64,000 bases of DNA, from the NCBI GenBank assembly GCA_964607755.1, contig CAZSMC010000001.1:81677-145676 (forward strand). The letters are read 5' to 3'. The stretch comes from an uncultured Cytophagia bacterium. Lineage in GTDB: Bacteria > Zhuqueibacterota > Zhuqueibacteria > Residuimicrobiales > Krinioviventaceae. The notes beneath the pieces were generated by a model. The model saw only the letters and a list, made by a program, of their open reading frames with translations, had not been told where the DNA came from and made no database searches. Within the stretch, counting starts at the first letter, position 1; every line of letters starts with the position of its first letter. A program made the position numbers and the translations under genes. Of the stretch, positions 2,847 through 58,400 are shown one piece after another.

Positions 2847-3068
2847 ATGGTTCAAATCACATTTAAAGATGACAAAGCCATTTTAAAGTTCCCAAAACAA
2901 CTGATTTCATCAGGATATGTGCAAGAGTTTCTTGAAAGATTGCGTTTAGAAGCAATAGTTGAAAAAAGCCAACTTTCTGAAGAACAAGCGTGGGAATTAT
3001 CAGAGGATATAAAGCGGGAATGGTGGGAAAAAAATAAGCGGAAATTTTTAAAAAGGGTCAAGAGTTGA
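2847..3068 (+). CDS. small putative antitoxin-like protein
   Basis: 73-aa charged ORF whose stop overlaps by about 4 nt the start of a PIN-domain remnant, which is the classic antitoxin-toxin arrangement. Confidence 0.3.
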   Translation: MVQITFKDDKAILKFPKQLISSGYVQEFLERLRLEAIVEKSQLSEEQAWELSEDIKREWWEKNKRKFLKRVKS

Positions 3069-3148
3069 AAAGGGTAATAGTAGATACGAACATCCTGTTT
3101 TCTGCTTTATTGGGAAAGAGTAAAAAACTCAGAATATATTTTTGCTAA
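3065..3148 (+). pseudogene. truncated PIN-domain (VapC-like) toxin remnant, first ~27 codons only
   Basis: TTG-initiated frame translates to KRVIVDTNILFSALLGKSKKLRIYFC*, matching a PIN-domain N-terminus (VDTNIL = acidic motif 1), then stops. Confidence 0.45.
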
Positions 3149-3257
3149 AAGTGTGCTAAAAAAGTAATAATATTCCTGTAGAGCATAGAAAAAAAGTGAC
3201 CCCCCAGTGGCTTTATTTCCTTCTTGCTTTTTCTGCATAACGGCACTATATTAAAAA

Positions 3258-4130
3258 ATGAGTCTCAAACCGGAAAGATACATCTCTCATAAACATAAAA
3301 TGTGGCCGGGTATAATTTTGCTATCCCGCCCGGTGAATGTGCTTATTGCTTTTGCCTCTGTGTTTGTGGCGGCTTTGTTATGCGACGCATCGCCTGACTG
3401 GGGTGCGGTGTTTTTAGCTTGTGGATCAGCAGGGTTGGTTACGGCCGCCGCTAATGCTATCAATGATTATTTCGATCTTGATATCGACCGAATCAACAAA
3501 CCGGAACGGCCGCTGCCATCCGGCCTGATTTCAAAGAAACATGCCATTATGCTGGCGGTTTTATGTTACACTGGCGGCATTCTGCTGGGTGCTCTGATCA
3601 ATACCTTTGCTTTTATCATTGTCATTACCATCTCTTTTCTTCTTTATTTATACAGCGCGGTTTTAAAAAGGACTGTGCTTTTGGGCAATGCTGTTGTCAG
3701 CCTGTCTACAGCGTTTGCTTTTATCTATGGTGGTGTGGCTGTCCGCCATCCCGAGCGCGCAATTATTCCAGCGGTTTTTGCGTTCTTTATGCATTTTGGC
3801 CGTGAAATTATCAAGGATATGGAAGACGTGCGCGGCGACAATCAATTGCACGCCTACACCCTGCCTGTCCTTTATGGTGTGAGACCAGCTCAATGGCTGG
3901 TTACGTATATTTTTATCACATTGTTCGTTTTAACCCTGCTGCCTTTTTTGTTAAAAATTTATGGGACATATTATTTTATTACGGTGATGATGGGTGTGAA
4001 TAGCGTGTTAATCGGAGTTATTTTTATGGTCTGGAAGAATACGAGCACAAAAATGTTACACCGGTTGAGCGTTCTACTCAAGGCGGATATGCCTGTCGGA
4101 TTGCTGGCCATTTATCTCGGACAATGGTGA
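3258..4130 (+). CDS. UbiA-family prenyltransferase (DGGGP-synthase/chlorophyll-synthase-like subfamily)
   Basis: [21 protein letters not shown] Asp-rich motif plus second motif DMEDVRGD; about 8 predicted TM helices. Confidence 0.7.
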
Positions 4131-4593: not shown

Positions 4594-5352
4594 ATGCCTC
4601 CAGTCTACGACAATTTCGCCAGATATTACGATCTGGAATATGGCATGAAAGACAATGATCTGGATTTTTATTTGTCTCTGGCTCAGGATTGTGGCGATCC
4701 TGTTCTTGAGGTTGGGGTCGGTACCGGCAGGGTTGCGCTTGAGTTTGCTGAACAGGGATACCGTATAACCGGTATCGATAATTCCCCGGCAATGATCGAC
4801 AAAGCACGCGAAAAGTGTGATACTCTTGATCATGCTTCGCACCAACGCCTGAAACTCATAACAGCGGATATGAGAAATTTTTCTTTAAATCAGCAGTTTA
4901 AATTATGCGTGTGTCCGTTTCGGACATTGCTGCATAATTTGACGATGGACGACCAACTCGCTACACTACATTGTATCTATCGGCATCTTGTACCTGGCGG
5001 TGTGCTGGCATTCGACATCTTTGTGCCGTTATATCAGATCATGGCGCATAGATCATGGCATCAAAAAATGACACCACAAGACCTCGCAGACGAACATTCT
5101 GATGTTCATATTGATATCGATATTGATCATGATCCGGTTCTACAACTGTTAACGATAAAGAACACCTATCATCATCAAAAGACGAATGAAAATGAAACCG
5201 CTACAATGAAATATCGTTATATGTTTCGCTATGAAGCCGAAGCACTGCTCAAGCTTTCCGGATTTCAGGTTGAACACGTGTGGGGAGGATTCGAACATCA
5301 ACCATACGATTTTGACAGCGGCATGATGATTTTTTATGCCCGCAAACTGTGA
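4594..5352 (+). CDS. class I SAM-dependent methyltransferase
   Basis: Motif I VLEVGVGTGRVALEF, then GIDNSPAMI and acidic post-I residue. Confidence 0.65.
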   Translation: MPPVYDNFARYYDLEYGMKDNDLDFYLSLAQDCGDPVLEVGVGTGRVALEFAEQGYRITGIDNSPAMIDKAREKCDTLDHASHQRLKLITADMRNFSLNQQFKLCVCPFRTLLHNLTMDDQLATLHCIYRHLVPGGVLAFDIFVPLYQIMAHRSWHQKMTPQDLADEHSDVHIDIDIDHDPVLQLLTIKNTYHHQKTNENETATMKYRYMFRYEAEALLKLSGFQVEHVWGGFEHQPYDFDSGMMIFYARKL

Positions 5353-39629: not shown

Positions 39630-41708
39630 ATGATAGATTTAAAAAACCGCCGGAATATCGGAATCAGTGCGCATATTGATTCAGGCAAGACCACTTTGAC
39701 AGAGAGGATTTTGTTTTACACGAACAGAATTCATGCGATTCATGAAGTTCGCGGCAAAGATGGTGTGGGCGCAAAAATGGATTCCATGGAACTGGAGCGT
39801 GAACGGGGTATTACTATTTCTTCCGCTTCCACAAATGTAGAGTGGCAAAATCACTCTATCGACATTATTGATACACCCGGGCACGTGGATTTTACCGTTG
39901 AGGTTGAACGCTCGTTGCGTGTGCTTGACGGCGCCATTCTTGTGTTATGCGCGGTCGGCGGGGTGCAGTCTCAATCCATCACCGTAGACAGACAAATGAT
40001 GCGCTACAAAGTGCCGCGGGTGGCTTTTGTGAATAAATGCGACCGCATGGGCGCAAATCCGGAGCGCGTGGCCGAACAATTGCGCGATAAACTTAATCAC
40101 AATGCAGTGCTCCTGCAACTACCCATTGGGCTGGAACAGGATTTTAACGGCATCATCGATCTGATTAAAATGAAAGCTCTCTATTTTGAAGGCGAATTTG
40201 GTGAAAAAATTCGCGAGGACGATATCCCTGACAATTACATAGAAAAAGCCATGGAGAAACGCGACATTCTGCTCGATGCTGCCTCTATGTTTAGTGACGA
40301 TCTCATGGAAGCTTATTTAGAAGACCGGGTCACAGAAGACCTGGTTTACGAAGCGGTTCGCAAAGGGACGTTGTCTCGTGAACTCACGCCCGTTTTCCTG
40401 GGTTCTGCTTTTAAGAACAAAGGTGTCCAGCCATTGCTGGATGGTGTGATAAAGTATTTGCCAAATCCGCAAGAAGTAGAAAACATTGCTCTTGATCTTG
40501 AAAATGATGAAGCCGAAGTCACGTTGACGTCCAACTATGATGATCCGCTTGTAGCATTGGCTTTCAAGCTTGAAGATTCCAGATTCGGCCAGTTGACTTA
40601 TATCAGGATTTATCAGGGTACGCTAACAAAAGGCATGGAGATTTACAACCAGCGTTCCGGTAATAAAGTTCGTGTCGGCCGGCTGATTCGAATGCACGCA
40701 AACGAAATGGAAGATATTGATTCGGCCGGGCCCGGCGAAATCATTGCCATGTTTGGCATTGACTGCGCATCGGGTGACTCGTTTACATCCAAAGAAGTCA
40801 ATTATTCAATGACATCCATGTTTGTTCCAACTCCGGTCATCTCGCTTTCAGTTAAGCCCAAAGATAACAAGTCTTCTGAAAACATGGCTAAAGCGCTTAA
40901 CCGGTTCACAAAAGAAGATCCTTCTTTTCAGAGTTATGTCGATAAAGAGACCAATGATACAATTGTCAAGGGCATGGGCGAGCTGCATCTGGATGTGTAT
41001 ATAGAACGGATGCGGCGCGAATACAATGTTGATCTGGAAACGGGCGCGCCTCAGGTTGCTTATCGTGAGAGTATTTCCAGGGCATCCGAATTTGACTATA
41101 CGCACAAGAAACAAACGGGCGGGGCGGGACAGTACGGCCGCGTCTCAGGTCTCATCGAGCCCAATCACGAAACAGATTTCGAATTTATCGATGAAGTCAA
41201 AGGAGGCGTCATTCCAGGTGAATATATTCCAGCCTGTAAAAAAGGTTTTGAGATTTGTTTGGAAAAAGGCACGCTTATCGGTTTTCCGATCGTTGGTGTC
41301 AAGATAACATTGAACGATGGCAACTATCATCCGGTAGACTCATCTGAAATGGCATTTCAAACCGCTGCCATGATGGCTTTTCGTGAAGCGTACAATAAAT
41401 GTAAGCCCATCATTCTCGAACCCATTATGCGGGTTGCTGTTGAAGGTCCATCTGAGTTTCAGGGAGCAATTTTAGCGACCTTGAACCAGCGGCGCGGCAT
41501 TATCAACAGTGCGACTGAGGATAACAACTTTACCGTCGTTGAAGCAGAAGTTCCGTTAAGTGAAATGTTTGGCTATTCCACGGTCTTGCGTTCCTCAACT
41601 CAAGGCAAGGCCGAATTCACTATGGAATTCAGCCGTTACGGCAAAGTTCCGGAATCCATTTCCGAAGAATTGAAAAAAGAGTTTGCAGAAAAAAATAAAA
41701 ATCAGTAA
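39630..41708 (+). CDS. fusA: elongation factor G (stand-alone copy, possibly the EF-G2-type paralog)
   Basis: [21 protein letters not shown]1 motif, [13 protein letters not shown], full five-domain length of 692 aa; not flanked by rpsG or tuf. Confidence 0.8.
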
Positions 41709-41962
41709 TAATAAAGCCTGTTTCAGTTGTGTACCCTATATGTTTGTTAATTTGTTATTTATGATCTAAAAGGATCATTCTGCCGGTATAGTTTAAAGTG
41801 TTTGGATTTATAGTAATTCAACTTTAATTTAGCATATTTTCAATTTGATTCTCTATGAAATCACTTTGAAATTGAAATTTGTCATTAGATTCCATATCAG
41901 GAAAGTGGTCGATTGAAACAGGCTTTAATAGAAAAACAAAATTTTGACATAAGAGGATTTTC

Positions 41963-42673
41963 ATGGTAAAATCTGAAATCATCAAAAAAAGTCCGGTGCG
42001 GGTTTTCGAAGAAACATTGGAGGGCGGATTAGGTGTCGGCAATTTAGGTGCTGTCACGGCGCGAAAAGGTGTTGGCAAAACAGCCAGTCTTATCCATGTG
42101 GCTATCGACAAATTGATGCGCGGACAGCACGTGTTACACATCTCGTTTTCCGATGAACCCCGACACATCACAAACTGGTACGAAAACGTGTTCAAGGAAA
42201 TAGCCAACACCTACAAATTGGAAGATGCGCTTGAGGTGTACGATGAGATCATTCGCAATCGTTTTATTCTTCATTTCAAGCAGCCACATACGACTTTTAA
42301 GGAGATTTGCGACAATATTAGTGATCTGGAAAAAGGTCTGGATGAAAAGCCACAAATGATCATTATTGACGGGTATCCTTTTGAGAGCGCGTCATCTAAA
42401 GATGTGAAAGAGTGGAAAAAATATGCTCAAGATCAACAGGTGGCAATCTGGTTTTCCGTGACCATGCACCGGGACGCTCCGCATTTTAATAAAAACGGCA
42501 TTCCCGCTCCGGCAAATTATTTCGAAGACCTGTTTTCTGTCATTATAATGCTGAATCCGGCGCAAGATCATATCGATCTGGAACTGCTCAAAACTCATGA
42601 CAAAGCAGCTAATAAAAAGTTGAGACTAAAACTTGATCCCAGAACATTGTTGCTGGCCAATCATCGTGCCTGA
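41963..42673 (+). CDS. KaiC/RadA-like RecA-superfamily ATPase (single domain, COG0467-like)
   Basis: Walker A ARKGVGKT followed by HVLHISFSDEP (KaiC-like GxGKT...LYIS.EE pattern); Walker B-like QMIIIDGYP; 236 aa. Confidence 0.5.
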   Translation: MVKSEIIKKSPVRVFEETLEGGLGVGNLGAVTARKGVGKTASLIHVAIDKLMRGQHVLHISFSDEPRHITNWYENVFKEIANTYKLEDALEVYDEIIRNRFILHFKQPHTTFKEICDNISDLEKGLDEKPQMIIIDGYPFESASSKDVKEWKKYAQDQQVAIWFSVTMHRDAPHFNKNGIPAPANYFEDLFSVIIMLNPAQDHIDLELLKTHDKAANKKLRLKLDPRTLLLANHRA

Positions 42674-43481
42674 ATATCAACGTCCCGGACAAACCGGGAC
42701 GTTTCTGATTCTCATTATTTTAGGCGGATTAGGCTTTTGGGTTTTGCTCGATGCCCGAAACATGTTTAGGCGCAATCGGTTTTTCGGCACAACTTCGCTT
42801 CATACAAAAATTGCTGTTACAATGACGTTTGTTCTGATTATTGTTGGCTTTGTAGCACTTTTGATTTTTGAATGGAATAAAGGTTATGCCGACTTTTCCA
42901 TAAAATCAAAATTGTTGGCTTCTGCTTTTCAATCTGTAACACCTCGAACAGCAGGATTTAATACACTTGACATGAATTCATTGACAAACAGCTCGCTTTT
43001 TCTTTTATTGTTTCTCATGCTCGTCGGGGCATCGCCAGGTTCGTGCGGTGGAGGTATTAAAACCACCACCTTTACGGTTATATTAGCTATGATCCGTTCA
43101 CGAGTGCGGAACCAAAAACAGATTACCATTTTCAAACGTGGAATTCCTGAAGAGACAATATCCAGAGCGATCGGTATTACCTTTTTTGCTCTATTGGCCG
43201 TTTTAATTTTTACGATGCTACTTTTGATTACAGAACATCCTCAGGGTGTTCAGACCGACAATCGGTATTTGTTTTTAGAGGTTATTTTTGAAGTTTTTTC
43301 TGCTCTCGGTACTGTGGGATTAAGCCTGGGACTCACATCTGTTTTATCAACAGCAGGAAAAATTATCGTAACGCTCTTGATGTTTGCCGGACGAATTGGA
43401 CCAGTGACGCTGGCCCTGGCTATTGCCGGACGGCGTTCACTCAATATTCGTCTGGCTGAAGAAAACTTTTGGGTAGGTTGA
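42633..43481 (+). pseudogene. ktrB: 5'-truncated ktrB/trkH: C-terminal half (repeats 3-4) of a K+ uptake membrane subunit
   Basis: TPRTAGFNTLDM and SCGGGIKTTTF selectivity-filter-like motifs; it aligns only with the C-terminal ~250 aa of KtrB, so the first two MPM repeats are missing; overlaps the 3' end of the KaiC-like gene. Confidence 0.5.
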
Positions 43482-43500
43482 TACTTAATTCGAGGCAAAA

Positions 43501-44157
43501 ATGAAATCGTTTGCAGTCATAGGATTATCAAGTTTTGGATTTTACTTGGCAAAACAGCTTGCCGATGACGGCCACTCGGTCATGGCTATTGATAGAAAAG
43601 AAGACCGTATCGAGCGGGTAAAATCTTTTGTTGACCGGGCTATCATTGTTGATGCGACTGACCGGGAAACGTTGACCGGCTTGGGATTGGCAGACCTGGA
43701 TGCCGTTATTGTCAGTCTGGGCGATTCCATGGATGCGAGCATTCTGGTTACGCTATATTTACGTGAACTCAAAACCGAGAACATCATTGCCAAAGCGCTC
43801 ACTGAAGACCATGGTAAAATTCTCAACATCATCGGGGCAACCGAGGTTGTCTTTCCGGAACGTGATGAAGCCAGAAGAATTGCTAAAAAAATTCAAAGTG
43901 ATTATCTGCTCGACTTTTTTGAAATCGGAGAGGGTACCAGTATTATCGAAACGGCGCCACCAAATGAATTTGTAGGATACAAGCTGGGCGATCTTGATCT
44001 ACGAAACAAATACGGCGTGTTGGTAATAATGATTAAAGAAGTAGTGCCGGAAAAAACAGTCATCATCCCAGCCGCAGATCATGTGATCAAAGATACCAGT
44101 ATTTTACTTTTATTAGGCAGGAACGAAGACCTGGCAAAGATCAAAAAAATGAAATAA
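43501..44157 (+). CDS. ktrA: K+ uptake regulatory subunit KtrA/TrkA (RCK_N + RCK_C)
   Basis: MKSFAVIGLSSFGFYLAKQL Rossmann GxGxxG; TrkA-C domain; 218 aa. Confidence 0.7.
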   Translation: MKSFAVIGLSSFGFYLAKQLADDGHSVMAIDRKEDRIERVKSFVDRAIIVDATDRETLTGLGLADLDAVIVSLGDSMDASILVTLYLRELKTENIIAKALTEDHGKILNIIGATEVVFPERDEARRIAKKIQSDYLLDFFEIGEGTSIIETAPPNEFVGYKLGDLDLRNKYGVLVIMIKEVVPEKTVIIPAADHVIKDTSILLLLGRNEDLAKIKKMK

Positions 44158-44274
44158 CTTTTTAATAATGAGATCAAAAAAATCAATATCCTACAGGCAT
44201 AATTAATATTGACGTTTTCCCTGGATTTGACTAATTTTAATTTTAGAATTTGACCAAAGCAAGGAGACTTTGAG

Positions 44275-44742
44275 ATGCCTGTGCATTTTATACGCGTCAT
44301 TCGCGAACTTTCAGATAACCGTTCACGACAGGAAAGTGAAAATTCATTTTTTTACACAGATGTCGACCGGATGTGCACTGGCCGATGGGAACCCAACACA
44401 GATATCACTGAAAGTGAAGACGAGGTTTTTATTCTTGTCGAACTTGCCGGTGTAAAGCGCGAAGATATTACGGTGAAAGTAAAAAATGGAAAATTGCTTA
44501 TCAAGGGATTGCGCCGGTACATTTTGCCAGATAAAAATGTCTATTTTCATCAACTCGAGATAAATTGTGGAGAATTTTTGAAAACCATTCCTATTCCGCA
44601 GTCTATCGAGCACAATGAAATTTCTGCCCAATTCTACGAAGGTCTTCTCGAAATCCGCATTTCAAAAACAGACAAACCTGTGGAAATACCTGTCAGTTCC
44701 GAATGGCACAAAGAAAATTCGCATGAAAAGGAGAGGCATTGA
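44275..44742 (+). CDS. Hsp20/alpha-crystallin small heat-shock protein
   Basis: WEPNTDITESEDEVFILVELAGVKREDITV...GLLEIRI alpha-crystallin domain. Confidence 0.8.
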   Translation: MPVHFIRVIRELSDNRSRQESENSFFYTDVDRMCTGRWEPNTDITESEDEVFILVELAGVKREDITVKVKNGKLLIKGLRRYILPDKNVYFHQLEINCGEFLKTIPIPQSIEHNEISAQFYEGLLEIRISKTDKPVEIPVSSEWHKENSHEKERH

Positions 44743-44748
44743 GAAAAT

Positions 44749-47145
44749 ATGAATGAAAATAAATACAATATAAAATTGGATCCGGATCAGGAAATACTGG
44801 AAAAGATCCCCCATGAACTGTCAATCTTACCGTTGCGCGATACTGTCGCTTTCCCAAATATTGTCACCCCGCTGGTCGTGGCAAGAGAAAAATCGGTCAA
44901 GTTGATCAACGATGTGCTTTCCGGTGACCGGATGCTTGGACTCGTGGCACAGAAAAATAGCGAAGTGGAAGAACCTACGCCCGATGATATTTTTTCTTAT
45001 GGTACTGCTGCCAGCATTTTAAGAATGCTCAAATTCCCGGACGGATCACTGCGAGTTCTGGTCCAGGGTATATCCCGTATCAAACTGCTAAAACTGGAGC
45101 AAGAGGATCCATATCTTATTTATAAAGTGAGATTGACCCCGCATGAATACAAAGAATCAACGGAACTTGAAGCGCTGAAACGTAACATTTCCAATCAGTT
45201 TCAGGAAATTGTCGCCAACGTTCCGCAATTGCCGGATGAACTGCAGGTTGTGGTAATGAACACCAGCCATCCCGGAAAATTAGCAGACCTTGTGGCTTCG
45301 AACCTGAATTTATCGCTTGAAGAAAAACAGAAAATCATCGAGACCATAGATATCAAAAAACGTCTCGAGCTCCTCATGGTCTACGTGAACCGGGAAAGCG
45401 AAGTTCTCAAAATGGGTTCAAAAATCCAGGACCAGGTACAAAGTGAACTGGGGAAAAATCAACGCGAATATTTTTTGCGTGAACAATTGCGAGCGATACA
45501 AAAAGAGTTAGGTATAGGCGACGAACGGACTGCCGAACTGCAAGAGCTTTCTGATAAAATCGATAAAGCGGGTATGCCAGAAGAAGCCGAACGTGAAGCA
45601 AGGCGTGAACTGGATCGGTTGTCAAAAATGCAGCCGGGTGCGGCAGAATATACTGTTTCACGAACTTTTATTGATTGGATGATTTCACTGCCATGGTCTG
45701 TTTCGACTGAAGAACACCTGGACATCGAAGCTGCCCAGCAGGTGCTGGATGAGGACCATTACGATCTTGAAAAAGTCAAAGAGCGGATTGTTGAGTATTT
45801 AGCTGTGCGCACGTTAAAGAGTGATTCAAAGGGCCCCATACTTTGTTTTGTTGGTCCGCCAGGAGTGGGAAAAACATCGCTCGGCCAATCCATTGCCAGG
45901 GCTACCGGACGGAAATTTTACCGCATTTCTCTCGGCGGCATTCACGACGAAGCTGAAATTCGCGGACACCGCCGAACCTACATCGGCTCGCTGCCGGGCC
46001 GGATTATTCGCGGTATGAAATCTGTCGGAAGCAATAATCCGGTCTTTATGTTGGACGAGATCGATAAAGTGGGCCAGGACTTTCGTGGCGATCCATCGTC
46101 CGCTTTGCTCGAGGTGCTTGATCCAGAGCAAAATCACTCGTTTTCAGATCATTATCTCGATGTGCCGTTTGATCTGTCACGCGTGATGTTCATCACTACA
46201 GCGAACATCCTGGATACCATACCCTCTGCCTTGCTCGATCGTATGGAAGTCATCCGGATACCAGGTTACGTGGACGAAGACAAGCTGCAAATTGCGACAA
46301 GGTACCTGGTTCCGCGACAAATAAGAGAAAATGGTTTAAAAAAGAAAAATATCTCCTTTAATAAAAGCGGTTTACGCCGAATTATTCACGATTATACCCG
46401 TGAAGCTGGCGTTCGAAATCTTGAGCGCCAGATTGCCTCTGTTTGCCGCAAAGTAGCGCGAGACGTCGCTTCCGGTAAGGAAGAAATGCACAAGATTACA
46501 TCCGAAAATGTACCTGATTATTTGGGACCGCAAAAATATTATTCTGAAGTGAAAGAACGCACCGCCATGTCCGGTGTGGCAACCGGTCTGGCATGGACAC
46601 CGACCGGCGGTGATGTACTTTTTGTCGAAGCTACAGGAATGCCCGGTGACAATAAATTGACTTTGACCGGTCAGCTTGGAGATGTAATGAAAGAGTCGGC
46701 ACAAGCTGCTCTTTCTTATGCCCGGTCTCGCGCAAAAGATTTGGATATTTCACCATCTAAATTCAGCAAAACAGATATTCATATCCATGTCCCGGCAGGT
46801 GCAATCCCTAAAGACGGTCCGTCCGCCGGTGTGACAATCACAACAGCGCTGATCTCGTTACTCAAAGACAAGCCAGTTCGTAACGATATTGCCATGACCG
46901 GCGAAATAACCTTGCGCGGCAAAGTACTGCCTGTTGGCGGCATCAAGGAAAAGGTGTTGGCGGCACGGAGAGCCGGAATTAAAAAAGTTATCCTTCCGGA
47001 TAAAAACAAGAACGATGTGGAAGAAATCTCCGAGCATGATAAAAAAGGCATGCAGTTCTATCCGGTCGAATCGCTTGATCAAGTTCTTGAATTGGCACTG
47101 AGAAAAAAACCATCAAAAAAAGTGAATGAAAATGACACAGGATAA
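44749..47145 (+). CDS. lon: ATP-dependent protease Lon
   Basis: LON N-domain, Walker [14 protein letters not shown], catalytic Ser motif [16 protein letters not shown] with the Lys region; 798 aa. Confidence 0.9.
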
Positions 47146-48544
47146 TTTTAGCAAACTGGCTGATAAATGCAAGCAGATCAACCAGGAACATCTTTTAACC
47201 TTTTGGAACGAACTGGACACAAAACAAAAAGAGCAACTTGAGGAGCAAATCAATCAACTCGAGGCGGATCTGATCCGCAAACTTCAGACCCTGCTCAAGG
47301 AAAAAGCCAGTCCGAATGACAAAGCCAGGGCTACGTTAGAACCCATGCCGGTGATCACTTTACCCAAAACAGATGCAGAGCGAAAGACTTTTCAAAGGTA
47401 CAAACAGCGTGGCGAGGACATGCTTCGACAGGGCAAAATGGCTGTCATTCTGGTCGCTGGCGGCCAGGGAACACGTCTTGGTTTTCCGCATCCCAAGGGA
47501 ATGTTTCCTGTCGGACCGGTCTCGAACCGAACACTTTTTCAATATCACACCGAAAAGATCCGTGCGCTCGAGCAACGGTATCGGGTCACTCTTCCTTTTT
47601 ATATCATGACCAGTCCATTAAACCGCAATGAGACAGAAAATTTTTTCAGGCGAAATAATTATTTTGGCAAATCCCCCGACTCTATTTTTTTTGAGCAGGG
47701 CATGCTTCCGGCAATGGATGATAATGGCCGCATTTATTTGCGTGACCGCGATGCTCTTTTTATGTCCCCGGATGGTCACGGCGGTCTGTTACGAGCCTTG
47801 GCAAAAAAAGGATTGCTAAAAGATATGCGCCAAAGAGGTGTTGAATATATGTTTTACTTTCAAGTCGATAATCCTCTGGTCAAAATCTGCGATCCGGTTT
47901 ATATCGGCGGTCATATTGAGCAGAGAGCTGAAATGTCAGTGAAAACCATTTACAAGCGTTCCTGGGATGAAAAGCTCGGCGTTCCGGGTATCCGCAACGG
48001 TCAGCGGGTGATTATTGAATATTCCGAACTCTCCGAGCAAGATAAAAAAGCAAAAACAAGTGACGGCACATTCAAATATGGCCAGGGCAGTATTGCCATT
48101 CATTTGTTTAATCTCGGTTTTTTTGAGCGGTTATCTGAATCCGAATATTTACCCTTTCATGTTGCGCATAAAAAAATTGAGCACATCACCCCAGAAGGTG
48201 AAATGGTGGAACCTGAAGAACCAAACGGATTCAAGTTCGAGCAATTCATTTTTGACGCCCTGCCCCGAGCAAAAGAGGTGATGATTATGGAGACGGACAG
48301 AGATGAAGAATTCAGTCCGATAAAAAACGCCGATGGAGAAGACTCGCCAGCCACAGCCCGCCAGGACCTGTCCAATCTATTTGCTGGCTGGCTGGAAGAC
48401 TGTCAAGTGGATGTAAAACGCGACAGTGCCGGTAATGCACTAAACAGGATAGAAATCAGTCCGCTGTACGCACTGGATAAAAGTGACCTTGAACATAAAT
48501 TACCAGAAAATTTTATTGCCAGGGGAGATGTCCTCCTGGAATAA
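47126..48544 (+). CDS. UDPGP-family UDP-sugar pyrophosphorylase (UAP1/UGP-like, eukaryotic-type fold)
   Basis: LVAGGQGTRLGFPHPKGMFPVG nucleotide-binding loop and YIMTSPLN motif of the UDPGP family. Confidence 0.6.
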   Translation: MKMTQDNFSKLADKCKQINQEHLLTFWNELDTKQKEQLEEQINQLEADLIRKLQTLLKEKASPNDKARATLEPMPVITLPKTDAERKTFQRYKQRGEDMLRQGKMAVILVAGGQGTRLGFPHPKGMFPVGPVSNRTLFQYHTEKIRALEQRYRVTLPFYIMTSPLNRNETENFFRRNNYFGKSPDSIFFEQGMLPAMDDNGRIYLRDRDALFMSPDGHGGLLRALAKKGLLKDMRQRGVEYMFYFQVDNPLVKICDPVYIGGHIEQRAEMSVKTIYKRSWDEKLGVPGIRNGQRVIIEYSELSEQDKKAKTSDGTFKYGQGSIAIHLFNLGFFERLSESEYLPFHVAHKKIEHITPEGEMVEPEEPNGFKFEQFIFDALPRAKEVMIMETDRDEEFSPIKNADGEDSPATARQDLSNLFAGWLEDCQVDVKRDSAGNALNRIEISPLYALDKSDLEHKLPENFIARGDVLLE

Positions 48545-48583
48545 CATTTTCAGCCCCAGACTCTGTATAAAAGGATAACACGA

Positions 48584-51500
48584 GTGACAAAAAAAAGCAG
48601 AAACACTGAGGTTACAAAACGGCCCGTTTGGAAACGAGTGGGGCGTTTTTTTATTTTTTTCGTCCCTGGTCTTGTCGTTCTTTTTTTGTTACTTGGCCTT
48701 GCGCTTCATATCTATCTCACACCGGAACGCGTTGGAAAATTTGCTGCACATACACTGCAAAAAAATTATCACCAGCATCTCGAGATGGAACCAGTGCATT
48801 TCAGTCTTTTTAATGGGCTGGAATACCGCAATATCCGATTATCAGCTTTGCCAGATTCAGTGCCCGTGTCCTCATCTCTTCCTGATATGACTTTAAAGGC
48901 GGACCGGTTGTACATTAAATACAGTCTGCTGCGTTTGTTTTACCGCGAATTTGTTATTAAAAAGATCATACTTGACAATCCAGAGCTGGAAATCTCAATG
49001 ACTGCTGAACCTCCGAAAACAGTAAAAAGTCAGGCAGATATTGCAGAAACTTCTGTAACAAAAGATACTCTTTTTTCTCCGCTGGAGATAAAACTCAATA
49101 CCGTGCAATTAAACAATGCCCGCATCACCGCCAACTTGCAAGACTCGCTGCAAAGTCAACACATTTTTCTGAGCAATTTGAGCATCACGCTGGATAATGT
49201 TAAAACGCCAAGAGGAGATATTTTGGCATCGAACAACGCTCTGGGCGGTGATTTTGGACTATTTCTGAAAAAGGCGGATTTTGCCTATCGCAAAAAAGGT
49301 TTGCCAGAGGAGACTGTCGATATTAACGGCACTGTTGATCTAAAATCGCGCCTGTTTATCAATTCATTAAATGATATTACTTTTACACTGAACCTTGAAC
49401 TGTTAAACGCTGAATTAAAAGATGCTGAACAGTTGACAATAAAAATCGATTTTCCTGTTCGCACAAACATTAACGGACAGGCCGATGTTGGAAAAGGTAT
49501 TGTCGAATGTGATCCCATCAGCTTTATAGTTCAGGATCAAACATGGCTGGACCTCTCGCTGCGGGCAGATAGTATTCTCACTGTTCCATACATTTCTGCG
49601 TCGATGAACGAAAGCAGAATTCCCATTGATCAGCTCTTCTCACTGAGTCAAAAATTTATTCCGGATTCGCTTTTCCCGGATTATTATCTGCATAATAAAA
49701 AAGCTGCCATCTCCTTTGCCGGTACGTCACTTAAAGGACATCTGCCGGATTCACTTGCAAAACATAAACTCGACATTAACGCTGTGATTAACCTCTCGGA
49801 TTTTGGCATCACGCTCAATAATGGCGAATATTTAATTGAAAATTTTCATTTTTCCACTGACCTCAAAAGTGTGTTTTCTTTTCACGGACTGGAAAAAACC
49901 GTATCATCGGTATCCATGAACCTTGATTCCCTGTCTGTCATGACCGTCGAAAATATGCCGCTAACCTCCGGACCGGCAGAAATAGACGTTGCCGCAGAAC
50001 TTGATCAGTTTTCTCCACGAACGATTAGCGGTGAAATGAGTTTCCCTGATTTGGTTGGCGCAGATTTCTCTGGCGGATTTTCGTTATCCTCGTCATCAAC
50101 AGTCGAAAATTTGAGCGGTAAAGCAATGTTTACAATAGCCAACTTTGACCTTCGTCGCCTGCCAGACACGCCAGCGCAAGGCACTGTTGGAGCTTCTTTA
50201 TCAATTGATGTCAATACACTCGAGTCAATAGCTGCTCATTTTAGGGTGAACACAACTCCTGTCACTCTTGAAAACGGAGCAAGTTATACCTTTCCGGAAA
50301 TGCATTTTTCGACTGACGCTTTTGCTCGAACAGATGTTCAGATACAGACGGTCTACCTTGATTCCCTTTACGCGGCATTTAACGATATTTTGCACATGCA
50401 CGCTAATGGTTCGTTCACAAATGAACCTGTTAAGAAGATGCATCTTAATATTGCCGATTTCAAAATAGAGCACACCAAACTTGTCGACTTTATGCCGCTT
50501 TCTCCGGGCGATCCACTCCAGGAACTTGAGGTCTCCGGTTTTACATCCCTTTCAGGTTATGCAGATGCAACGATGGACGGAGATTCGTTAACATTTGATG
50601 TTCAAACTCGGCTCTCTGCTCCAGACATTTCTGTTGATTATCAACCGGCGCAATTTTCCATAAGCGACATAAAATTTCAAACGTTTTTGGATATGAATTC
50701 CCAAAAAGGTTTGAAAAGCCGTGTCTCACTTGATATCGGTAAGGCGAATCTGTTGACGCTCCGCAGACAAGCCTTTACCAATAGTGCCATGAAATTGCAG
50801 TTGTCGAGTCAGGATTTTAATACATTCAAAGTGGACAGCGGCTACATCTCTTTGCCTGATCTGCACTTTTACACACAGTTCGATGCACAAGCTGAAAATG
50901 TGCAAAGCGATCCCCGCATCGATGCCAGACTTGTCATGGATTTCAATGTGCAGGATTCACTGCAAATTATAAGAGATCTTGTTGTTTCCGGAAAAAGTAA
51001 TCTCACCGCAGCTCTTGTTGCAGATACCAGCACAGCTATACTGGATTGCCGGCTCGAAAGCGACAACGTCAATGTTTTCGCAGGAATGAACACAGTCATT
51101 GAAAACATTTTTGCAGATGTCACAATACATCAACAGATTGATCTTGAAAGAGGACTGTTGATTGGCACGGAAAAGCCTCTAATACAAACACCTCACCACC
51201 GGATGCCGGATTACATGTTGTACCGTTCCTATTTTCAGCCATCAGATCAATCCGGTGTCTCTCAGAGCACAATCAAAATTGAGCGGATTGTTTCCGGCGA
51301 ATATGAATTGAATAACGCAATCGTTACAGCCTTTTTCGGCAATGGCCGGATCGAAGTACCTCACTTTTATTTGGATGTTTATAACGGCAATATCGGCGGA
51401 TGGGTATCGATAGACGCTGCAAACAAAAAGCCAGAGAACGTTTCATACAAACTATCAGCCAACGTCTCTGGTGTAAACTCTGCTTATCTTCTCGCGCGCG

Positions 51501-52440: not shown

Positions 52441-55400
52441 ATGATCTACAAGAATGTAAAATATTCACTGCTGCAATTGTTTTATCTTCTGTTTTCAGTT
52501 TTTTCTTTGCTTTTTATTCTATATGCAAACCTTTTCTCCCAGACGATTCCTGAACAATTCCGGCAGGTAACGACGCATGCTGATATCGATTTGGCACCAA
52601 GACTTTCGCCGGACGGCAAATGGCTTGCTTTTGTATCGAAACGTTCGGGCAATTATGATATCTGGTTGCGGAATATGCAAAACGGGCGAACCCGCCAGTT
52701 AACCACCCACCGCGCTGATGATTATTACCCGGCATGGGATCCAAAAAGCAGTTACATTGTGTTTGTCTCCCAGCGCAGCGATGCAGAAGGTGATGTGTTC
52801 AAACTCGAACTATCGAACATTTTGGGCGAGCTTGTCGCCAGAAAAAAGCCCGAGCAGTTGACTTTTTACAAAGGATTTGACGGTTATCCATGTGTATCCC
52901 CGGATGGCAAACAAATCGCCTGGGTTAGCGATCGCTCTGGTTTGGATAATATCTGGCTGCAGAGCAAGGGCAGGAATAAAAATGTACGCATATTAACGCA
53001 CGGCGGCGCAACGCATCCGGTCTGGAGCCCGGTCCAGGATTATCTGGCATTTACAACCTTTCGTGAAGATAAAAGCAACGGCGATATCTGGCTGCTCAAT
53101 CTTTATGCCCCAAAAGGAGCGTACGTTCCGAAAACACCTGTGGACAGTCTTGAGCGCCCGATGTGGCCTGTGACGAAAGGGCCGGCAAGGGACGGATTTC
53201 CGGTTTTTTCACCCGATGCAAAACAAATTGCTTTTGTTCGCCGTGATTTCAATACAGACAAAAACGGTAAAATCACGCCGAATGATGCGGCAGCCATCTG
53301 GAGTGTTGACATTTCCTGGGTTCCCGAGGATACATCTGCCAACAATGATCCTTTGCTAAAGCTCTATGGCGATTCGTTTAATCCCGAAATTGTTCACAAA
53401 GCTCATATCGCAACCCAGGGCTACAACACCATCCAGCCGGAATGGGGAACAGACCTGCGCATTTATTGTTCGTCTTCTCACAGCGGCAATGATGATATTT
53501 GGAGTTTGCCTGATAGCGGATTTTTCCCCGCACTCGAAAATCCTGCAGCTCAGTTCCGTTACGCTGATGAAAATTTCACCCTGCCCAACAATCTGACTTT
53601 TCACAGTCTCGATCTTTTCTTCCTTTCAGGTACGTTGTCTGAAAGGCAAAAGTTGTCATTATGGAATCGGATACAGGCCTTTCAGAATGTGTGCACAAAC
53701 TTTTCTGATGATGAATTATGTGCAGCAGCACTATTGCAGCAAAGTGTCTGTTATCATATTTTAGGCCACACTTTCAGAGCTCTAAAAATCATTCAGTACA
53801 TTAGAGAACAGGCCCGCGACCAGGAGCTCATTTCAGCCAAAGCGGATATTATGGCCACAGTTATGGCAAAAACAGTGGATCGAGATTCAGCGTCGTTATA
53901 CAATCTCCTCAATGATTTACAACGCCTTGAACAAACCGAAACGTACCACCCCCAAGCCACAGCTCTGGTTTACATCATTATCGGAGATGTGTACGACAAA
54001 ATTAATGATAATGAAAAAGCAATGTCGTATTACACACGCGCTGTTGAAAAATATCCGGATATCCGCGAACTAGCTGCTGAAAGTCTTTACAAACGGGGAA
54101 TACTGCACAAGAAAAATGACGAGTCTGAAAAAGCGATTGGAGATTTTTCAACGGTTCTTGACACATATAGCGACATTGAAAAATGGCGGCACCTGGCGCA
54201 AAAAGAGCTTTTTGGAATTTTTGAGAAAAATGTGGCAACCCGGCAAAATTATGTTGAACGCTATGAATCTATCGCTGAAAAGTATTCGGGAAATCCCTCT
54301 GTCTCTGCAGAAGCACTTTATCGTAAAGCAGCGCTTTTCCGGGAAAATGAAGACTATGCAAAAGCGCTATCAACGTTGGATTATATCGAAAATAATTTTC
54401 AGGACCATCAGGATTACACCTTTAAAGCCGCGCTTAAAAAAGCCGGTATTTTATTTGATTCGGGACAAGACAATAAAGCATTTTCCATACTGGATTCTCT
54501 TTATACTTTTCACATCGACAAAAATCCCAGCCTTGCGGATCAAGCTCAAAAGAGAATGGTTCAGGCACTTGTACGCGCTGCAGATGAATTGCGTGTCAGC
54601 AATGACTTAAAAATTGCTCTGCCTAATTATAAGCACGCCTGGCAATTAGCCCCGGACAATGTGGATGCACATCGCGGTTACATACAATGTCTCTATCGCC
54701 TGGGCCGTATTGATGAAGCTATGAGCGAATACGATGCTCTAAGCAAACAAGTCCCTGACAATAATATTGTTCAGTATGCCCGGGGTCTTGCCTATTCCTA
54801 CAAAGGCACAGAGAAAGCGGACCTCAAAAACGATCCTTATGGCATCAAACCGGAATATCTCAAAAAATCCAACGATATCATCCGCCAGGCACTTGCACAG
54901 GATTACACCTTCATAGATGCCTATCTGACAATGAGTTACAACTATGAGACTCTGGAAACCCACAATATTCGGGAACAGCAAAGGTCCAAATCGTTTTTAC
55001 GCAAATCATGGAACACTGTAACCGCTCCGCTGTTGTGGACTTTTCGTACACTCACTTTTTGGAGCGAAACCCGCGAACCGAGATACTATGAAGATGCCAT
55101 TCAGGAATTGAGCCGTGCGCTGGCATTGAATGATGAAAAGCAAAATCCGGAACTCGAAGCGCGTTTAGCTCTGAACATGGCGAACAATTATTACAAATTA
55201 GGGGAATTCGGATTTAAACGCGCTTATGAATACTATCATATTCGCATGAGGCACGATTCCACATTTGAAGACATTCAACAGGAAGCCGCGATAAAGTCGC
55301 GCATGGGACATTGCGCATTGGTCGTCCAAGACCTGGATAAAGGGCCCGGTTATTTAAAGCGCTCCATTCAGTTGTATAAAAAATTGAACAGAGACATCCA

Positions 55401-58400
55401 GGTGCTGATCAATACCAAAAGGCTGGCTCTGTTGTATGAGATTGGCGGCGATTCACAGCAAGCCTTGCGCTATTATCAGGAAGCGGCTGATGTCGAACAG
55501 CGCCGCAGCTTCCACACCGGACTCATGCGCAGTTATCGAAGCATGGCGCATCACAGCCAAATCCTCAACAGGCAGAAAGATGCCATGACTTATTCCGAAA
55601 AAGCTTTGGAGCTTTTACATAGTGATCTGATAAAACAAACAGAAGGTAAACCGATTTACCTTCAACTTGGATTGATGGGCATTTACTTTCCAATACCGTA
55701 TGATTTGCGCAATTTCGGGGTAAAATCTACCACCGAATTAACTACAGATCAGGAAGAAGCTTTTGTGTACAATGTATTAGCGAATAATTATTTGAATGAC
55801 AAGACCTATGACAAAACTCTGGAATATTTGCATAAAAAATGGAAGATTTATAAAGAACGCAAGGATGCGGATTCACAAGCGATTATATACAACAATATTG
55901 GTTATATAAACTATATCAAGGGCGACTATTATCAGGCATGGCTGGGTTTTACAAATTCGTATTGGAAGTGCTATAAAATCCATTACATAGCGGGTCAGGC
56001 GTTAAACATTCGCAACTCGGCTGAAATCGTCCTGGCAATGGCCAGAGCATCAGACCCTTATAATCGTCGAAATCTCAAAAAATGCCATGACTGGATTACC
56101 AATAAAATACACGAAATGATGCAATTGATGGAACCGCAAAAAGAACTCTACTATGATACTTTTATTCATTTTCATTTGCTTTTGGCACAGCTCGCTTTGA
56201 TTGATCCGGTTTACAATAAGAGTGATGATTTGCAAGGAACTATTTTCTCTTCGCTTACCTCTTTTGATAATGCCGAGGCCGCACTGGTTCAGCTTGATTT
56301 GGCATTAACATTGAGCAGGCTATATAAACAGAAAACTGAAGAATGTGCCATCGAATTTCATTACGGCAGGATTTATCATTTGATTGGCACCGAGAGAGAA
56401 GCTTTTCGCCATCTAATGAAAAGCCGGACCCTGGCCATCCGGGAACGGTACCTGGAGATGTTGTGGCAAATCAATACGTATATTGGCAAGACGCTCGAAG
56501 AGATGGATGATCCATTAAGAAAAGAACTGGTCAAAAATAGAACAGCACTGGATTATTATCAGGAAGCCATTGACGTTTTGCAAAGCCGGTCTTTCAAAAC
56601 ACCAGGAATCTCGATCCGGACACTTCGGGAGGCGCATGAAGAGCCTTACCGGCAGGCAATTGCTTTTATGATTGAAAAAGGCGACACCCTGGGCGCGTTT
56701 AAAACCACGGAAGCAATGCGTTCAGAAACATTCCTGAATATGGTCTCCAGAGAGAAATTACACTTTTTCTCGCAAAAAGATAGTACTTTTTATGAGCGTG
56801 CCCGTACACTCGGAGCTGACATCAACGAAAGCGAAATAAACCTGCTTCAACTCCGTCAGAGTCCGAATGTGTCGCAGTCCAGAATTAACAATCTAACCAA
56901 TGAACTTTTATTAAAAAAGCAAGAATATAACGAGCTGCTTCAACAAATAAGCATAGAGACCCCAGGACTTGAACCGCTGATTCATGTGCCTGATTTGGAA
57001 ATCTCTCAGATACAAACCCAGATTCCTTCCAGTCGGGGATTATTTTATCACGTTACGCTCGATGACTTTACTGCGGTTTGGATTATTACTAGTGATAACG
57101 TTCAATTTTTCAGGCTGCCAGTTTATAATCCTCAATTCACAGATGCTCTATTAACATTCGAACATCAGTTAGCGCAAGATTCCGCCAGCATACATGACGT
57201 GCCAACATTCCTGGATATTCTTTTTGCGCCTCTAAAAAAAGCAGCTTTTGAATATGTCACCGTGATCCCGGATTATGATGTGCTACTTTTCCCATGGCAT
57301 ATTATTAATTTTTCATCAATTGCTGAAAACATGCCCCGAATAGAACGCATAAATTCCAGTTTATCGAGTTATTCTCTTGCAAATAAAAACCGGAAACTTG
57401 AGGGGCAAAAAATTGCCACCACAGCCTCAACAAAATTATGGGAAAGTGAGAATTATACTGTACTGAATCCTGATTCTTTAATATCCAAAAAAAGATCAAC
57501 AGCTCAGGCAATGACCAATGAAGCGAACATTTTCCATCTAAAAGGTTCAACAAACTGGGACCAAATGAGTCCGTTGCGCACGACATTTGCTTTCCCGGCA
57601 CCAAAACAGAGTACACAGAATTTGACAGCTTTGTCGCTCTACGGGTATACCGCGAATCCATACATTTGCCTGCTGGACCCTGGTGCGGATTCGCTTTACT
57701 TCAACGGAAGCGAGCCGGCAATCGCTCTTGAATGTTCTTTTTTCTACAGCGGTGTGCCCTCGGTTATATTCACTTTATGGCCCAATGCAGATTCTACTTC
57801 AAGTATTTTTTATGCAGAATTTTATAAAAATTTAACAAACATGCCTCCGGCCATGGCATTACATACAACACAGAAAAATTTAAATGCAAACGGTGTTCCG
57901 GTTAGTGTCTGGGGTCGTTACCAATTTTACGGGTTCCCGGGAATGACCCGGCAGGAAGAGCAACTGTTTGCCAGCGAGAATCTCGATTTTGTCATCCAAC
58001 GCGCTGATGAAGCATTTGACAGAGGTGATTGGCTAAATGCTCTGCAATCCTACCGGCAGGCTATGGAATTGAGTGAACGCCGGGGCAATGAAATGCAGCA
58101 CCAGCTCCTTGACAGAATGCTGCAAAGTACGATGAATGGTGCCTTGTGGTCAGAGGCAATTGGTATCCAAAAACAAATTATTCATCTGGCAGAGGCGGAC
58201 AAAAACTGGCAAGCAGCCGCCAGAGGGTACAAACAACTGGCTAACTATTATAGCGAAAACAGTCAATATGAAGAAGCGGCAAAAGCCAATCAGAAATACG
58301 ACCAGCTTACCAGCCGTTACGGGCTCGAACGCAATGAAGGAAATCTTTTCATAGAGACGGCACAGATTTATGAACGCGGGCATCGCTATGAAAAAGCAAT

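Follow-up and report, generated by a model that had tools for sequence, protein, structure and literature searches.

A 5'-truncated ktrB, probably a young deletion pseudogene, beside a RecA-fold ATPase gene in an uncultured bacterium of the KSB1 group

A partial ktrB gene upstream of ktrA

In the window, a 64-kb stretch of the metagenome-assembled genome of an uncultured KSB1-group bacterium, ktrA is preceded by an open reading frame that resembles only part of the potassium channel subunit KtrB, and this frame is in turn preceded by the gene for a P-loop ATPase (Table 1). The arrangement raises the question of what became of the rest of ktrB and whether the ATPase has anything to do with its loss. 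A sequence-only reading had offered two answers, namely disruption of ktrB by insertion of the ATPase gene, leaving a pseudogene and an orphaned ktrA, or an unusual channel subunit of this lineage, split or half-size, with the ATPase as its partner.

Table 1. Features of the ktrB locus, in positions of the 64-kb window
Feature	Positions	Strand	Remarks
EF-G gene (fusA-type)	39630..41708	+	TIGR00484; context only, outside the Ktr system
RecA-superfamily P-loop ATPase gene	41963..42673	+	Stand-alone, intact, 236 aa; Walker A ARKGVGKT, Walker B IIIDG
ATPase terminator hairpin	42679..42703	+	10-bp stem 42679-42688 / 42694-42703, loop 42689-42693
Deletion junction	42703..42704	.	blastn and base-level registers against L001
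ktrB remnant, 5'-truncated	42704..43481	+	~codons 205/206-462 of the full-length gene
ktrA	43501..44157	+	Intact, 218 aa; RCK protein, TrkA_N and TrkA_C domains

The pore of KtrB and TrkH proteins is built by one chain of four repeats, each with one filter loop. The open reading frame at 42633-43481 on the forward strand (282 aa, TTG start) covers only the C-terminal ~56% of KtrB/TrkH, as had been read from the sequence: its residues 25-264 match positions 224-490 of the 502 positions of the Pfam profile TrkH (PF02386; 122.6 bits, cut-off 27), and TIGR00933 is matched at positions 166-391 of 391 with 194 bits, under the 331-bit full-length cut-off. A full-length KtrB orthologue (P0002; 462 residues) served as query and reference. 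With KtrB of B. subtilis (PDB 4J7C) and of V. alginolyticus as the known systems, P0002 aligned end to end with 4J7C (E 1.8e-92); its residues 205-462 were 86.8% identical to the remnant. Compared with KtrB of KtrAB, the remnant comprises ~257 of the 462 residues, that is, repeats 3 and 4 preceded by the last part of helix M2 of repeat 2. It keeps the filter-type motifs RTAGFN (repeat 3) and GTVGLS (repeat 4) and, in repeat 3, the glycine-rich stretch of M2, and it has ktrA next to it, as usual; however, it is without start codon, ribosome-binding site and repeats 1 and 2, whose CVTGL and CNAGF loops were lost with residues 1-~205 of the orthologue. The four membrane-pore-membrane repeats (D1-D4) are thus not present in one polypeptide, and since one KtrB chain needs all four for its pore, the remnant cannot form a normal channel. 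GGGIKTTTF, earlier called filter-like, belongs to this glycine-rich stretch of repeat 3 and not to a selectivity filter.

The ATPase gene had been said to end 40 nt inside ktrB. This 41-nt overlap turned out to be artificial, the start of the frame having been set at the first TTG that follows a stop codon. Sequence derived from ktrB begins at ~42704, 30 nt past the ATPase stop codon (42671-42673), and the first 23 codons of the 282-aa frame are the 3' end of the ATPase gene and its terminator hairpin in another frame. The ktrA gene starts 19 nt downstream of the remnant and encodes a protein that matches PF02254 (94.4 bits) and PF02080 (35.4 bits).

A deletion of 1,619 bp and its consequences

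The locus was compared with that of contig L001, which represents the closest relative (~80-85% nucleotide identity, same gene order) and which was used as the reference for the deletion. There, the ATPase gene is followed by a gene for a 291-aa NmrA-like protein, a ktrB gene encoding the full length of 462 aa, and ktrA. Two segments of the window aligned to this contig (blastn), 41926-42704 with L001 4210-4991 and 42703-49470 with L001 6611-13386, so that 1,619 bp of L001 (4992-6610) are absent from the window; the gap is clean and gene order is perfectly syntenic on both sides. Missing are the T-tail of the ATPase terminator, the intergenic spacer, the NmrA-like gene, and the beginning of ktrB, with its ribosome-binding site, its start codon and ~205 codons in all. 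The deleted DNA (blastn) and the NmrA-like protein (tblastn) found no match within the 64-kb window. Breakpoint microhomology amounts to a few bases at most (GTT/T; ~4 nt), no longer repeat being shared, and, with L001 ~15-20% diverged, the ancestral breakpoints and their microhomology are approximate only. The sole unusual detail of the deletion is that one of its breakpoints coincides with the 3' base of the intrinsic-terminator stem.

The direction of the change is given by the relatives: it was a deletion in the window, because most of the best homologs listed for the remnant have the full length of ~420-490 aa, with shorter proteins found mostly on short contigs, and the order ktrB-ktrA-hsp20-lon is kept elsewhere. 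This order, with a full-length ktrB directly followed by ktrA, was found in four KSB1-like genomes (L001, L004, L011/L012 and L013/L014), the genes upstream differing among them; L004, an unrelated KSB1 metagenome-assembled genome, was retrieved by scanning the genome collection with full-length P0002. An insertion in L001 was ruled out, full-length ktrB being the rule and syntenic in outgroups. The junction was found in three assemblies, the NCBI contig and two Logan contigs, and in two strain haplotypes. It is 100% identical to the window in L003 (SRR7048220), and L002 (SRR7048219) contains it in a second haplotype that is 99.7% identical, with five nucleotide differences. As three assemblies and two haplotypes carry the identical join, it is no assembly error, and microhomology of ~4 nt would not suffice for a k-mer assembler to produce it. 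A 212-bp insertion near the junction in the window is absent from L002.

Because the deletion starts at the base of the hairpin, it cut off the T-tract of the ATPase terminator. The L001 copy (4964-4991, -19.6 kcal/mol by RNAfold), with tail TCTTTTCC, is called terminator-like, hairpin and T-tract both being present, whereas the window hairpin (-18.3 kcal/mol), whose tail now reads TCTGATTC with only 4 T in 8, is not. Read-through transcription from the ATPase gene into the ktrB remnant and ktrA is therefore possible past the weakened terminator. No promoter-like site was found between the ATPase stop codon and the remnant, and no Shine-Dalgarno-like sequence before any in-frame ATG, GTG or TTG of the remnant, in contrast to the clear Shine-Dalgarno sequences preceding the ATPase, hsp20 and lon genes; the native start codon and ribosome-binding site of ktrB lie in the deleted block. 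At 42666, a GTG codon shares bases with the ATPase stop codon (GTGCCTGA), and in principle translation of the remnant could begin there by termination-reinitiation.

The reading frame of the remnant is open throughout its 258 codons, its lineage-specific substitutions are all conservative, and its dN/dS value is 0.134. Lineage-specific changes amounted to 12:8 and 12:7 for the remnant, 5:2 for ktrA and 39:39 for control genes, with no significant excess. KtrA is 94% identical to its L001 orthologue (dN/dS 0.036), and its length is the same in L001, L004 and L013. Decay of the remnant is thus not measurable, indicating that the deletion is recent; such absence of decay is expected of a very recent event and fits retained function equally. 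Judged from its sequence and context, the remnant is most likely a recent pseudogene, which would imply loss of ktrB function, and the window as a whole very probably records a recent strain-level deletion of ~1.6 kb with a young ktrB pseudogene as its product. At this locus, ktrA is without a cognate full-length KtrB; it may be newly orphaned or be kept for another KtrB- or KtrD-type subunit elsewhere in the genome.

The history that best explains these observations starts from an ancestor with the gene order of L001: rumA on the reverse strand, the EF-G gene, the ATPase gene with its terminator, the NmrA-like gene, full-length ktrB, ktrA, hsp20 and lon. A deletion with a few bases of microhomology at most joined the base of the terminator hairpin to about codon 205 of ktrB. 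It removed the terminator T-tract, the NmrA-like gene, any promoter of ktrBA, and the ribosome-binding site and start codon of ktrB, and it took the first two of the four pore repeats, among them two of the four selectivity-filter loops. What was left would have become a young pseudogene, with ktrA orphaned or serving another subunit, whereas the ATPase gene lies alongside it only through the deletion that brought both together. Bacterial pseudogenes generated by deletion, including microhomology-mediated ones, likewise show a clean deletion that runs from an intergenic region through one entire gene into the following one, few-base microhomology and strain specificity, with the frame still open when the event is young. 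The present case would be an ordinary recent example of this known kind.

The RecA-fold ATPase and its conserved neighbour

The presence of a 236-aa ATPase with Walker A motif ARKGVGKT, noted from the sequence alone, was confirmed, and the AF2 model (pLDDT 89.5) predicts a RecA fold with confidence. The protein is 91.5% identical to its L001 orthologue (dN/dS 0.05), and its family is uniform in length (235-238 aa) with invariant Walker motifs GxGKT and hhhhD, in particular G36, G38, K39, T40 and D136. Its earlier designation as KaiC-type was too specific. Foldseek matches of the model (TM 0.61-0.74) comprise Rad51 paralogs, DnaB, gp41, Twinkle, RadA and KaiC-CI, the latter with TM 0.66-0.69 and all others equal or better. 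The Pfam profile KaiC (PF06745) reached 16.8 bits, below its cut-off of 26.6, KaiC_arch_4 27.8 bits against 247.8, and AAA_25 (PF13481) matched under its cut-off too; identity to any solved structure is 14-16%. In KaiC-CI, strand 2 is followed by two catalytic glutamates (...FEE...). At the level of sequence, the ATPase family reads HISF(A/S)D(D/E/N)P in this region, with only D64 nearly invariant. In a profile search against the PDB, T4 gp41 and Twinkle were the first real matches. Designer pentatricopeptide proteins, which ranked at the top, were rejected because a single 28-residue helix had been summed over their repeats, an artefact in which no individual stretch was significant.

The 236-aa protein thus has the fold, the Walker A GKT and the Walker B hhhhD in common with single-domain ATPases of the RecA superfamily (KaiC-CI, archaeal KaiC-like/FlaH, RadA/Sms, the C-terminal domain of DnaB and Rad51 paralogs), but its matches to the AAA_25, KaiC and KaiC_arch profiles stay below every curated cut-off. 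It is a single domain, without DNA-binding or helicase N-terminal domains, and represents a distinct, tightly conserved family. All 8 KSB1-like contexts, the window included, have an EF-G gene (691-693 aa) immediately before the ATPase gene and in the same orientation, with ATPases that are 46-100% identical; in the window this EF-G gene scores 1025.8 bits against the TIGR00484 equivalog cut-off of 659.4. A ktr locus adjoins the ATPase gene only in the window and in L001. Since EF-G precedes it in 8/8 contexts and ktr genes are nearby in just these two, the ATPase gene was not inserted, and the ATPase is no partner of Ktr. Judged by gene order, the ATPase gene is in its ancestral position, unrelated to Ktr, and EF-G is its conserved partner. 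The recurrence of an ATPase-ktr pairing in other genomes, on which a functional link between the two would have depended, was essentially not observed. The outcome foreseen in the sequence-only reading, a ktrB pseudogene with an orphaned ktrA, agrees with the present one, but its cause was the 1,619-bp deletion and not insertion of the ATPase gene.

Other readings of the locus and their weight

Insertion of the ATPase gene into ktrB, with displacement of the 5' half, had been suggested only by the position of the gene directly upstream of the remnant. It is refuted by L001, where the ATPase gene and an undamaged ktrB occur together in the corresponding place, and by the EF-G neighbourhood, which holds for close and distant ATPase homologs alike. 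GC content is unremarkable, and no repeats or mobile-element genes flank the ATPase gene. An artefact of assembly or binning, whereby a chimeric join would conceal a true genome with full-length ktrB, may come to mind for a metagenome-assembled genome, all the more because the three contigs may share one sampling campaign (consecutive SRA run numbers). It is nevertheless highly improbable, for the NCBI contig shares its join with two Logan contigs built independently from two runs, one of them being a distinct haplotype that has five nucleotide differences and is without the 212-bp insertion, while the breakpoints offer no repeat above ~4 nt to mislead an assembler and synteny is perfect on both flanks. 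Hardly better are the prospects of a split gene, with repeats 1 and 2 relocated elsewhere in the genome and both halves assembling into a normal KtrB: the missing block is contiguous, also comprises the NmrA-like gene, and is gone altogether, leaving a clean junction. That an N-terminal half is lacking nearby, as read earlier, was borne out by tblastn over the 64-kb window, in which full-length P0002 and its N-terminal 203 residues matched nothing besides the remnant. A search for a stand-alone N-terminal half among 5.8 billion proteins, including those of the assembly of the window (P0001 and P0121, source label 'ncbi'), gave a best match of 56% identity among the matches listed, which were 174-356 aa long and did not contain P0002 itself, making this a good test for stand-alone halves only.

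A functional half-size channel would require the remnant to be expressed through read-through, with a start at GTG 42666, coupled to the ATPase stop codon, or at ATG 42762, and to form a KtrA-gated homodimer with a pseudo-fourfold pore. The open frame, the intact and conserved ktrA, the lack of a significant excess of substitutions in the window lineage, the truncated terminator T-tract, and the location of both codons, the GTG on the ATPase stop codon and the ATG in the loop that leads into repeat 3, would be in line with it. Even so, it is very unlikely. The truncated architecture was seen only in the strain population of the window (one protein cluster, three contigs), whereas the best homologs listed are mostly full length, one of them at 87% identity, and no N-terminal half above 56% identity was among the matches listed, leaving a lineage with a split or half-size channel and an ATPase partner without support. 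In addition, the deletion took an unrelated gene too, the signature of an accident rather than of a selected architecture; the remnant has no ribosome-binding site, its N-terminus would consist of out-of-frame junk and a broken transmembrane helix, and recency fully explains the absence of decay. A possible natural half-size TrkH (P0343; 234 aa, 12 contigs) was unusable, as it ends 28 bp from a contig end.

Two-pore-domain K2P channels form a pseudo-fourfold pore as homodimers, and the model of Durell and Guy for the evolution of Trk, Ktr and HKT proteins from KcsA reportedly contains a hypothetical two-repeat intermediate. The remnant, were it expressed, would supply two repeats per subunit and could complete a pore of four repeats only by dimerising. 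The resemblance is one of principle only; that a KtrA-gated half-KtrB homodimer with a K2P-like pore represents a living two-repeat intermediate between KcsA-like channels and Trk/Ktr/HKT is scarcely credible. Literature searches on the SRA runs and on KSB1 and potassium found nothing relevant, and those on KtrB evolution found only papers on HKT.

The young deletion pseudogene remains the preferred reading, and for annotation it means that the 282-aa frame should carry the label of a 5'-truncated ktrB pseudogene and not that of a TrkH-family protein, and that the ATPase should not be tied to potassium transport. For the organism, it represents the strain-specific loss of one gene for a potassium uptake channel in an uncultured KSB1-group bacterium, which is of small significance by itself. 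As the case illustrates, a deletion can place genes side by side in a misleading way and make a transporter look half-size; wider interest would arise only if a two-repeat half of KtrB proved in experiment to form a working pore.

Gene order and the truncated ktrB

The half-size ktrB beside an ATPase gene is a real feature with an ordinary explanation. A recent deletion of about 1.6 kb very probably turned ktrB into a 5'-truncated pseudogene, so that ktrA has lost its cognate partner here and an unrelated ATPase gene now adjoins the remnant. Of the two alternatives in the sequence-only reading, the first was right about the outcome, a pseudogene with an orphaned ktrA, and wrong about the cause, which it had sought in insertion of the ATPase gene. 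Gene order in the window is that of L001, the closest relative contig, save for two additions in the latter, which reads rumA (minus strand), EF-G, the 236-aa ATPase, a 291-aa NmrA-like protein, KtrB (462 aa), KtrA (218 aa), hsp20, lon and UDPGP. A very large ORF lies downstream of the locus (see table).

Features of the locus and its relatives (dN/dS is pairwise, window versus L001)
Feature	Sequence	Coordinates	Orientation or position	Remarks	dN/dS
rumA-type methyltransferase gene	window		divergent, upstream of the three ORFs		0.106
EF-G gene	window	39630-41708	upstream of the three ORFs		0.028
AT-rich insertion	window	41714-41925	EF-G/ATPase spacer	212 bp
ATPase ORF	window	41963-42673	same strand as other two ORFs	236 aa	0.052
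ktrB-derived ORF	window	42633-43481	same strand as other two ORFs	282 aa; begins at first TTG after a stop	0.134 (ktrB remnant)
ktrA ORF	window	43501-44157	same strand as other two ORFs	218 aa	0.036
hsp20	window		downstream of the three ORFs		0.058
lon	window		downstream of the three ORFs		0.044
UDPGP-family gene	window		downstream of the three ORFs		0.116
Very large ORF	window	52441-60801	+	2,786 aa
Difference from L002	window	41941
Difference from L002	window	43964		non-synonymous, ktrA N155 to I
Difference from L002	window	44232-44237	ktrA-hsp20 spacer	6-bp TAATTT indel, one unit of a tandem repeat
Difference from L002	window		lon	two sites
Gene upstream of ktrB	L001	5094-5969	between ATPase and ktrB	NmrA-like/NAD(P)-binding, 291 aa
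Gene upstream of ktrB	L004			137-aa ORF
Gene upstream of ktrB	L011/L012			ParA-like
Gene upstream of ktrB	L013/L014		divergent	thioredoxin-domain
P0343	L010 (ENA ERZ27313568 k141_359612)	3001-3705		N-terminal TrkH fragment, 234 aa
EF-G + ATPase unit	window	39630-42673
EF-G + ATPase unit	L001	2131-4959
EF-G + ATPase unit	L005/L006	2802-5711
EF-G + ATPase unit	L007	2851-5711
EF-G + ATPase unit	L008	2791-5711
EF-G + ATPase unit	L009	883-3803
EF-G + ATPase unit	L015	2869-5699
EF-G + ATPase unit	L016	2887-5711

The 282-aa ORF matched PF02386 (122.6 bits) at profile positions 224-490 of 502, the C-terminal part only, and TIGR00933 (194 bits) at positions 166-391 of 391, below the full-length cut-off of 331 bits. 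These partial matches bear out its earlier description as the C-terminal half of KtrB/TrkH. The remnant keeps the last part of repeat 2 helix M2 (ILIILGGLGF...) and repeats 3 and 4, with the motifs RTAGFN and GTVGLS. GGGIKTTTF, previously named as filter-like, belongs in KtrB/TrkH to the glycine-rich part of M2 in repeat 3 and is not a filter motif. The next ORF encodes a standard KtrA with TrkA_N and TrkA_C domains.

Most named homologs of the remnant and of the ATPase belong to candidate division KSB1, a few to Calditrichaeota and other groups. The best 120 listed for the remnant were mostly about 420-490 aa long, the shorter ones lying mostly on short contigs; hence, among the matches listed, the half-size form is unique to the window sequence, a single cluster of one NCBI contig and two Logan contigs. 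The closest listed homolog (87% identity) was P0002, the 462-aa KtrB of L001, which aligned end to end with Bacillus subtilis KtrB (PDB 4J7C; E 1.8e-92). Furthermore, four other KSB1-like contigs (L001, L004, L011/L012 and L013/L014) carry a full-length ktrB with ktrA-hsp20-lon immediately downstream, indicating that the full-length gene is ancestral and that the window lineage underwent the deletion.

As to a relocated N-terminal half, tblastn with P0002, its first 203 residues and the NmrA-like protein found nothing else in the 64-kb window, where blastn with the deleted DNA gave no match either. In a collection of 5.8 billion proteins, including those of the window assembly, none of the listed matches to the missing half (all 174-356 aa) exceeded 56% identity; P0002 was omitted from that listing, so that the search tests only for a stand-alone half. 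Records of P0343, which is unrelated to the window, come from 12 contigs (up to 62 kb); at the single site inspected it ends 28 bp short of the contig end, and a repeat or mobile element may break up the gene in that organism.

The deletion junction and its age

Alignment by blastn was collinear, window 41926-42704 corresponding to L001 4210-4991 and window 42703-49470 to L001 6611-13386, and L001 4992-6610 (1,619 bp) had no window counterpart. On the left flank, the ATPase stop codon (TGA, 42671-42673) is followed by a GC-rich hairpin, the stem of which pairs AACGTCCCGG (42679-42688) with CCGGGACGTT (42694-42703; -18.3 kcal/mol). The L001 hairpin has a T-rich tail on its 3' side, and a terminator scan called it terminator-like. 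In the window, that tail gives way after 'GTTT' to 'CTGATTCTCATT...', which is ktrB sequence starting at codon ~205; with its T-rich tail replaced, the window hairpin was not called by the scan. The junction flanks share microhomology of at most a few bases (GTT/T). At base level, the opening 23 codons of the 282-aa ORF thus come from the 3' end of the ATPase gene and from the hairpin, in a different reading frame, and not from ktrB; the 40-nt gene overlap reported before is an artefact of ORF definition.

The deletion took the terminator T-tail and the NmrA-like gene, any ktrBA promoter together with the start codon and ribosome-binding site of ktrB, and pore repeats 1 and 2, including the filter loops CVTGL and CNAGF. 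The NmrA-like gene, lost in the window, was missing ahead of ktrB in L011 and L013, and L004 has only 559 bp of contig upstream; the gene seems to be a lineage-specific neighbour and not part of a ktr operon.

Two Logan contigs of the same strain population carry the junction: L003 (SRR7048220) matches the window at 100% identity across 41942-43963 and L002 (SRR7048219) at 99.7%. L003 ends exactly at 43963, adjoining the polymorphic site 43964. Since L002 differs from the window yet carries the same junction, two haplotypes share the deletion. The breakpoint flanks, moreover, contained no common repeat able to mislead an assembler, and an assembly artefact at the junction is very improbable.

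Also polymorphic is the 212-bp insertion in the EF-G/ATPase spacer, missing from L001 and L002. Perfect 13-bp terminal inverted repeats (AAAGCCTGTTTCA; 41713-41725 and 41914-41926) and a flanking AAT/TAAT duplication make it look like a MITE-like, population-polymorphic mobile element. It is single-copy in the window, occurs in none of the 16 fetched loci, and as single-stranded DNA folds better than shuffles (z = -3.6).

Relative-rate counts with outgroups (window-specific to L001-specific amino-acid changes) were 12:8 and 12:7 for the remnant in two comparisons, 5:2 for ktrA and 39:39 for the pooled controls (lon, UDPGP and hsp20). Window-specific changes are only slightly in excess, and not significantly so; those in the remnant are all conservative, and its frame is open. 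The deletion is therefore recent when set against the divergence of the window from L001 (dS about 0.5-1.3), and it predates the separation of the two sampled haplotypes (about 0.3% divergence). Absence of decay fits a remnant too recent to decay and one still useful alike, and does not distinguish the two.

In the latter case, the remnant might be expressed as a two-repeat half-channel that dimerises, which is highly improbable. Reinitiation of translation is conceivable at GTG 42666, given its overlap with the ATPase stop (GTGCCTGA), and truncation of the T-tail may permit some read-through transcription. Clear Shine-Dalgarno sequences precede the ATPase, hsp20 and lon genes; none was found at the in-frame starts of the remnant (TTG 42633, GTG 42666, TTG 42744, ATG 42762 and ATG 42822).

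The EF-G-linked ATPase

The ATPase gene lies directly 3' of an EF-G gene on the same strand in eight of eight distinct contexts, other neighbours varying, and ktr genes follow it only in the window and L001. This indicates that the ATPase was neither inserted into ktrB, which L001 retains intact downstream of its own ATPase gene, nor is a partner of Ktr, as had been proposed. The EF-G of this two-gene unit in KSB1-like bacteria is of the fusA type, outside the str operon, and that of the window is a TIGR00484 equivalog. The EF-G/ATPase spacer is 35-128 bp in relatives and 254 bp in the window, owing to the 212-bp insertion.

The protein is a stand-alone RecA-superfamily ATPase. Its family is tightly conserved in length (235-238 aa; 232-238 aa across EF-G-linked units), with an invariant GxGKT Walker A, an hhhhDG Walker B and an HISF(A/S)D(D/E/N)P strand. 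A confident AlphaFold model (pLDDT 89.5) upheld the RecA fold of the proposed KaiC/RadA-like ATPase. The evidence does not place it in the KaiC family as such: matches to AAA_25, KaiC and archaeal KaiC-like models were sub-threshold, and the model was about equally close to Rad51 paralogs, DnaB, T4 gp41, Twinkle, RadA and KaiC-CI (TM 0.61-0.74, 14-16% identity). A profile search of PDB sequences found gp41 and Twinkle; its top matches, pentatricopeptide proteins, were rejected as a repeat artefact. About 280 members of the family were found at E <= 0.001, and a possible link of a RecA-like ATPase with translation elongation may deserve separate study.
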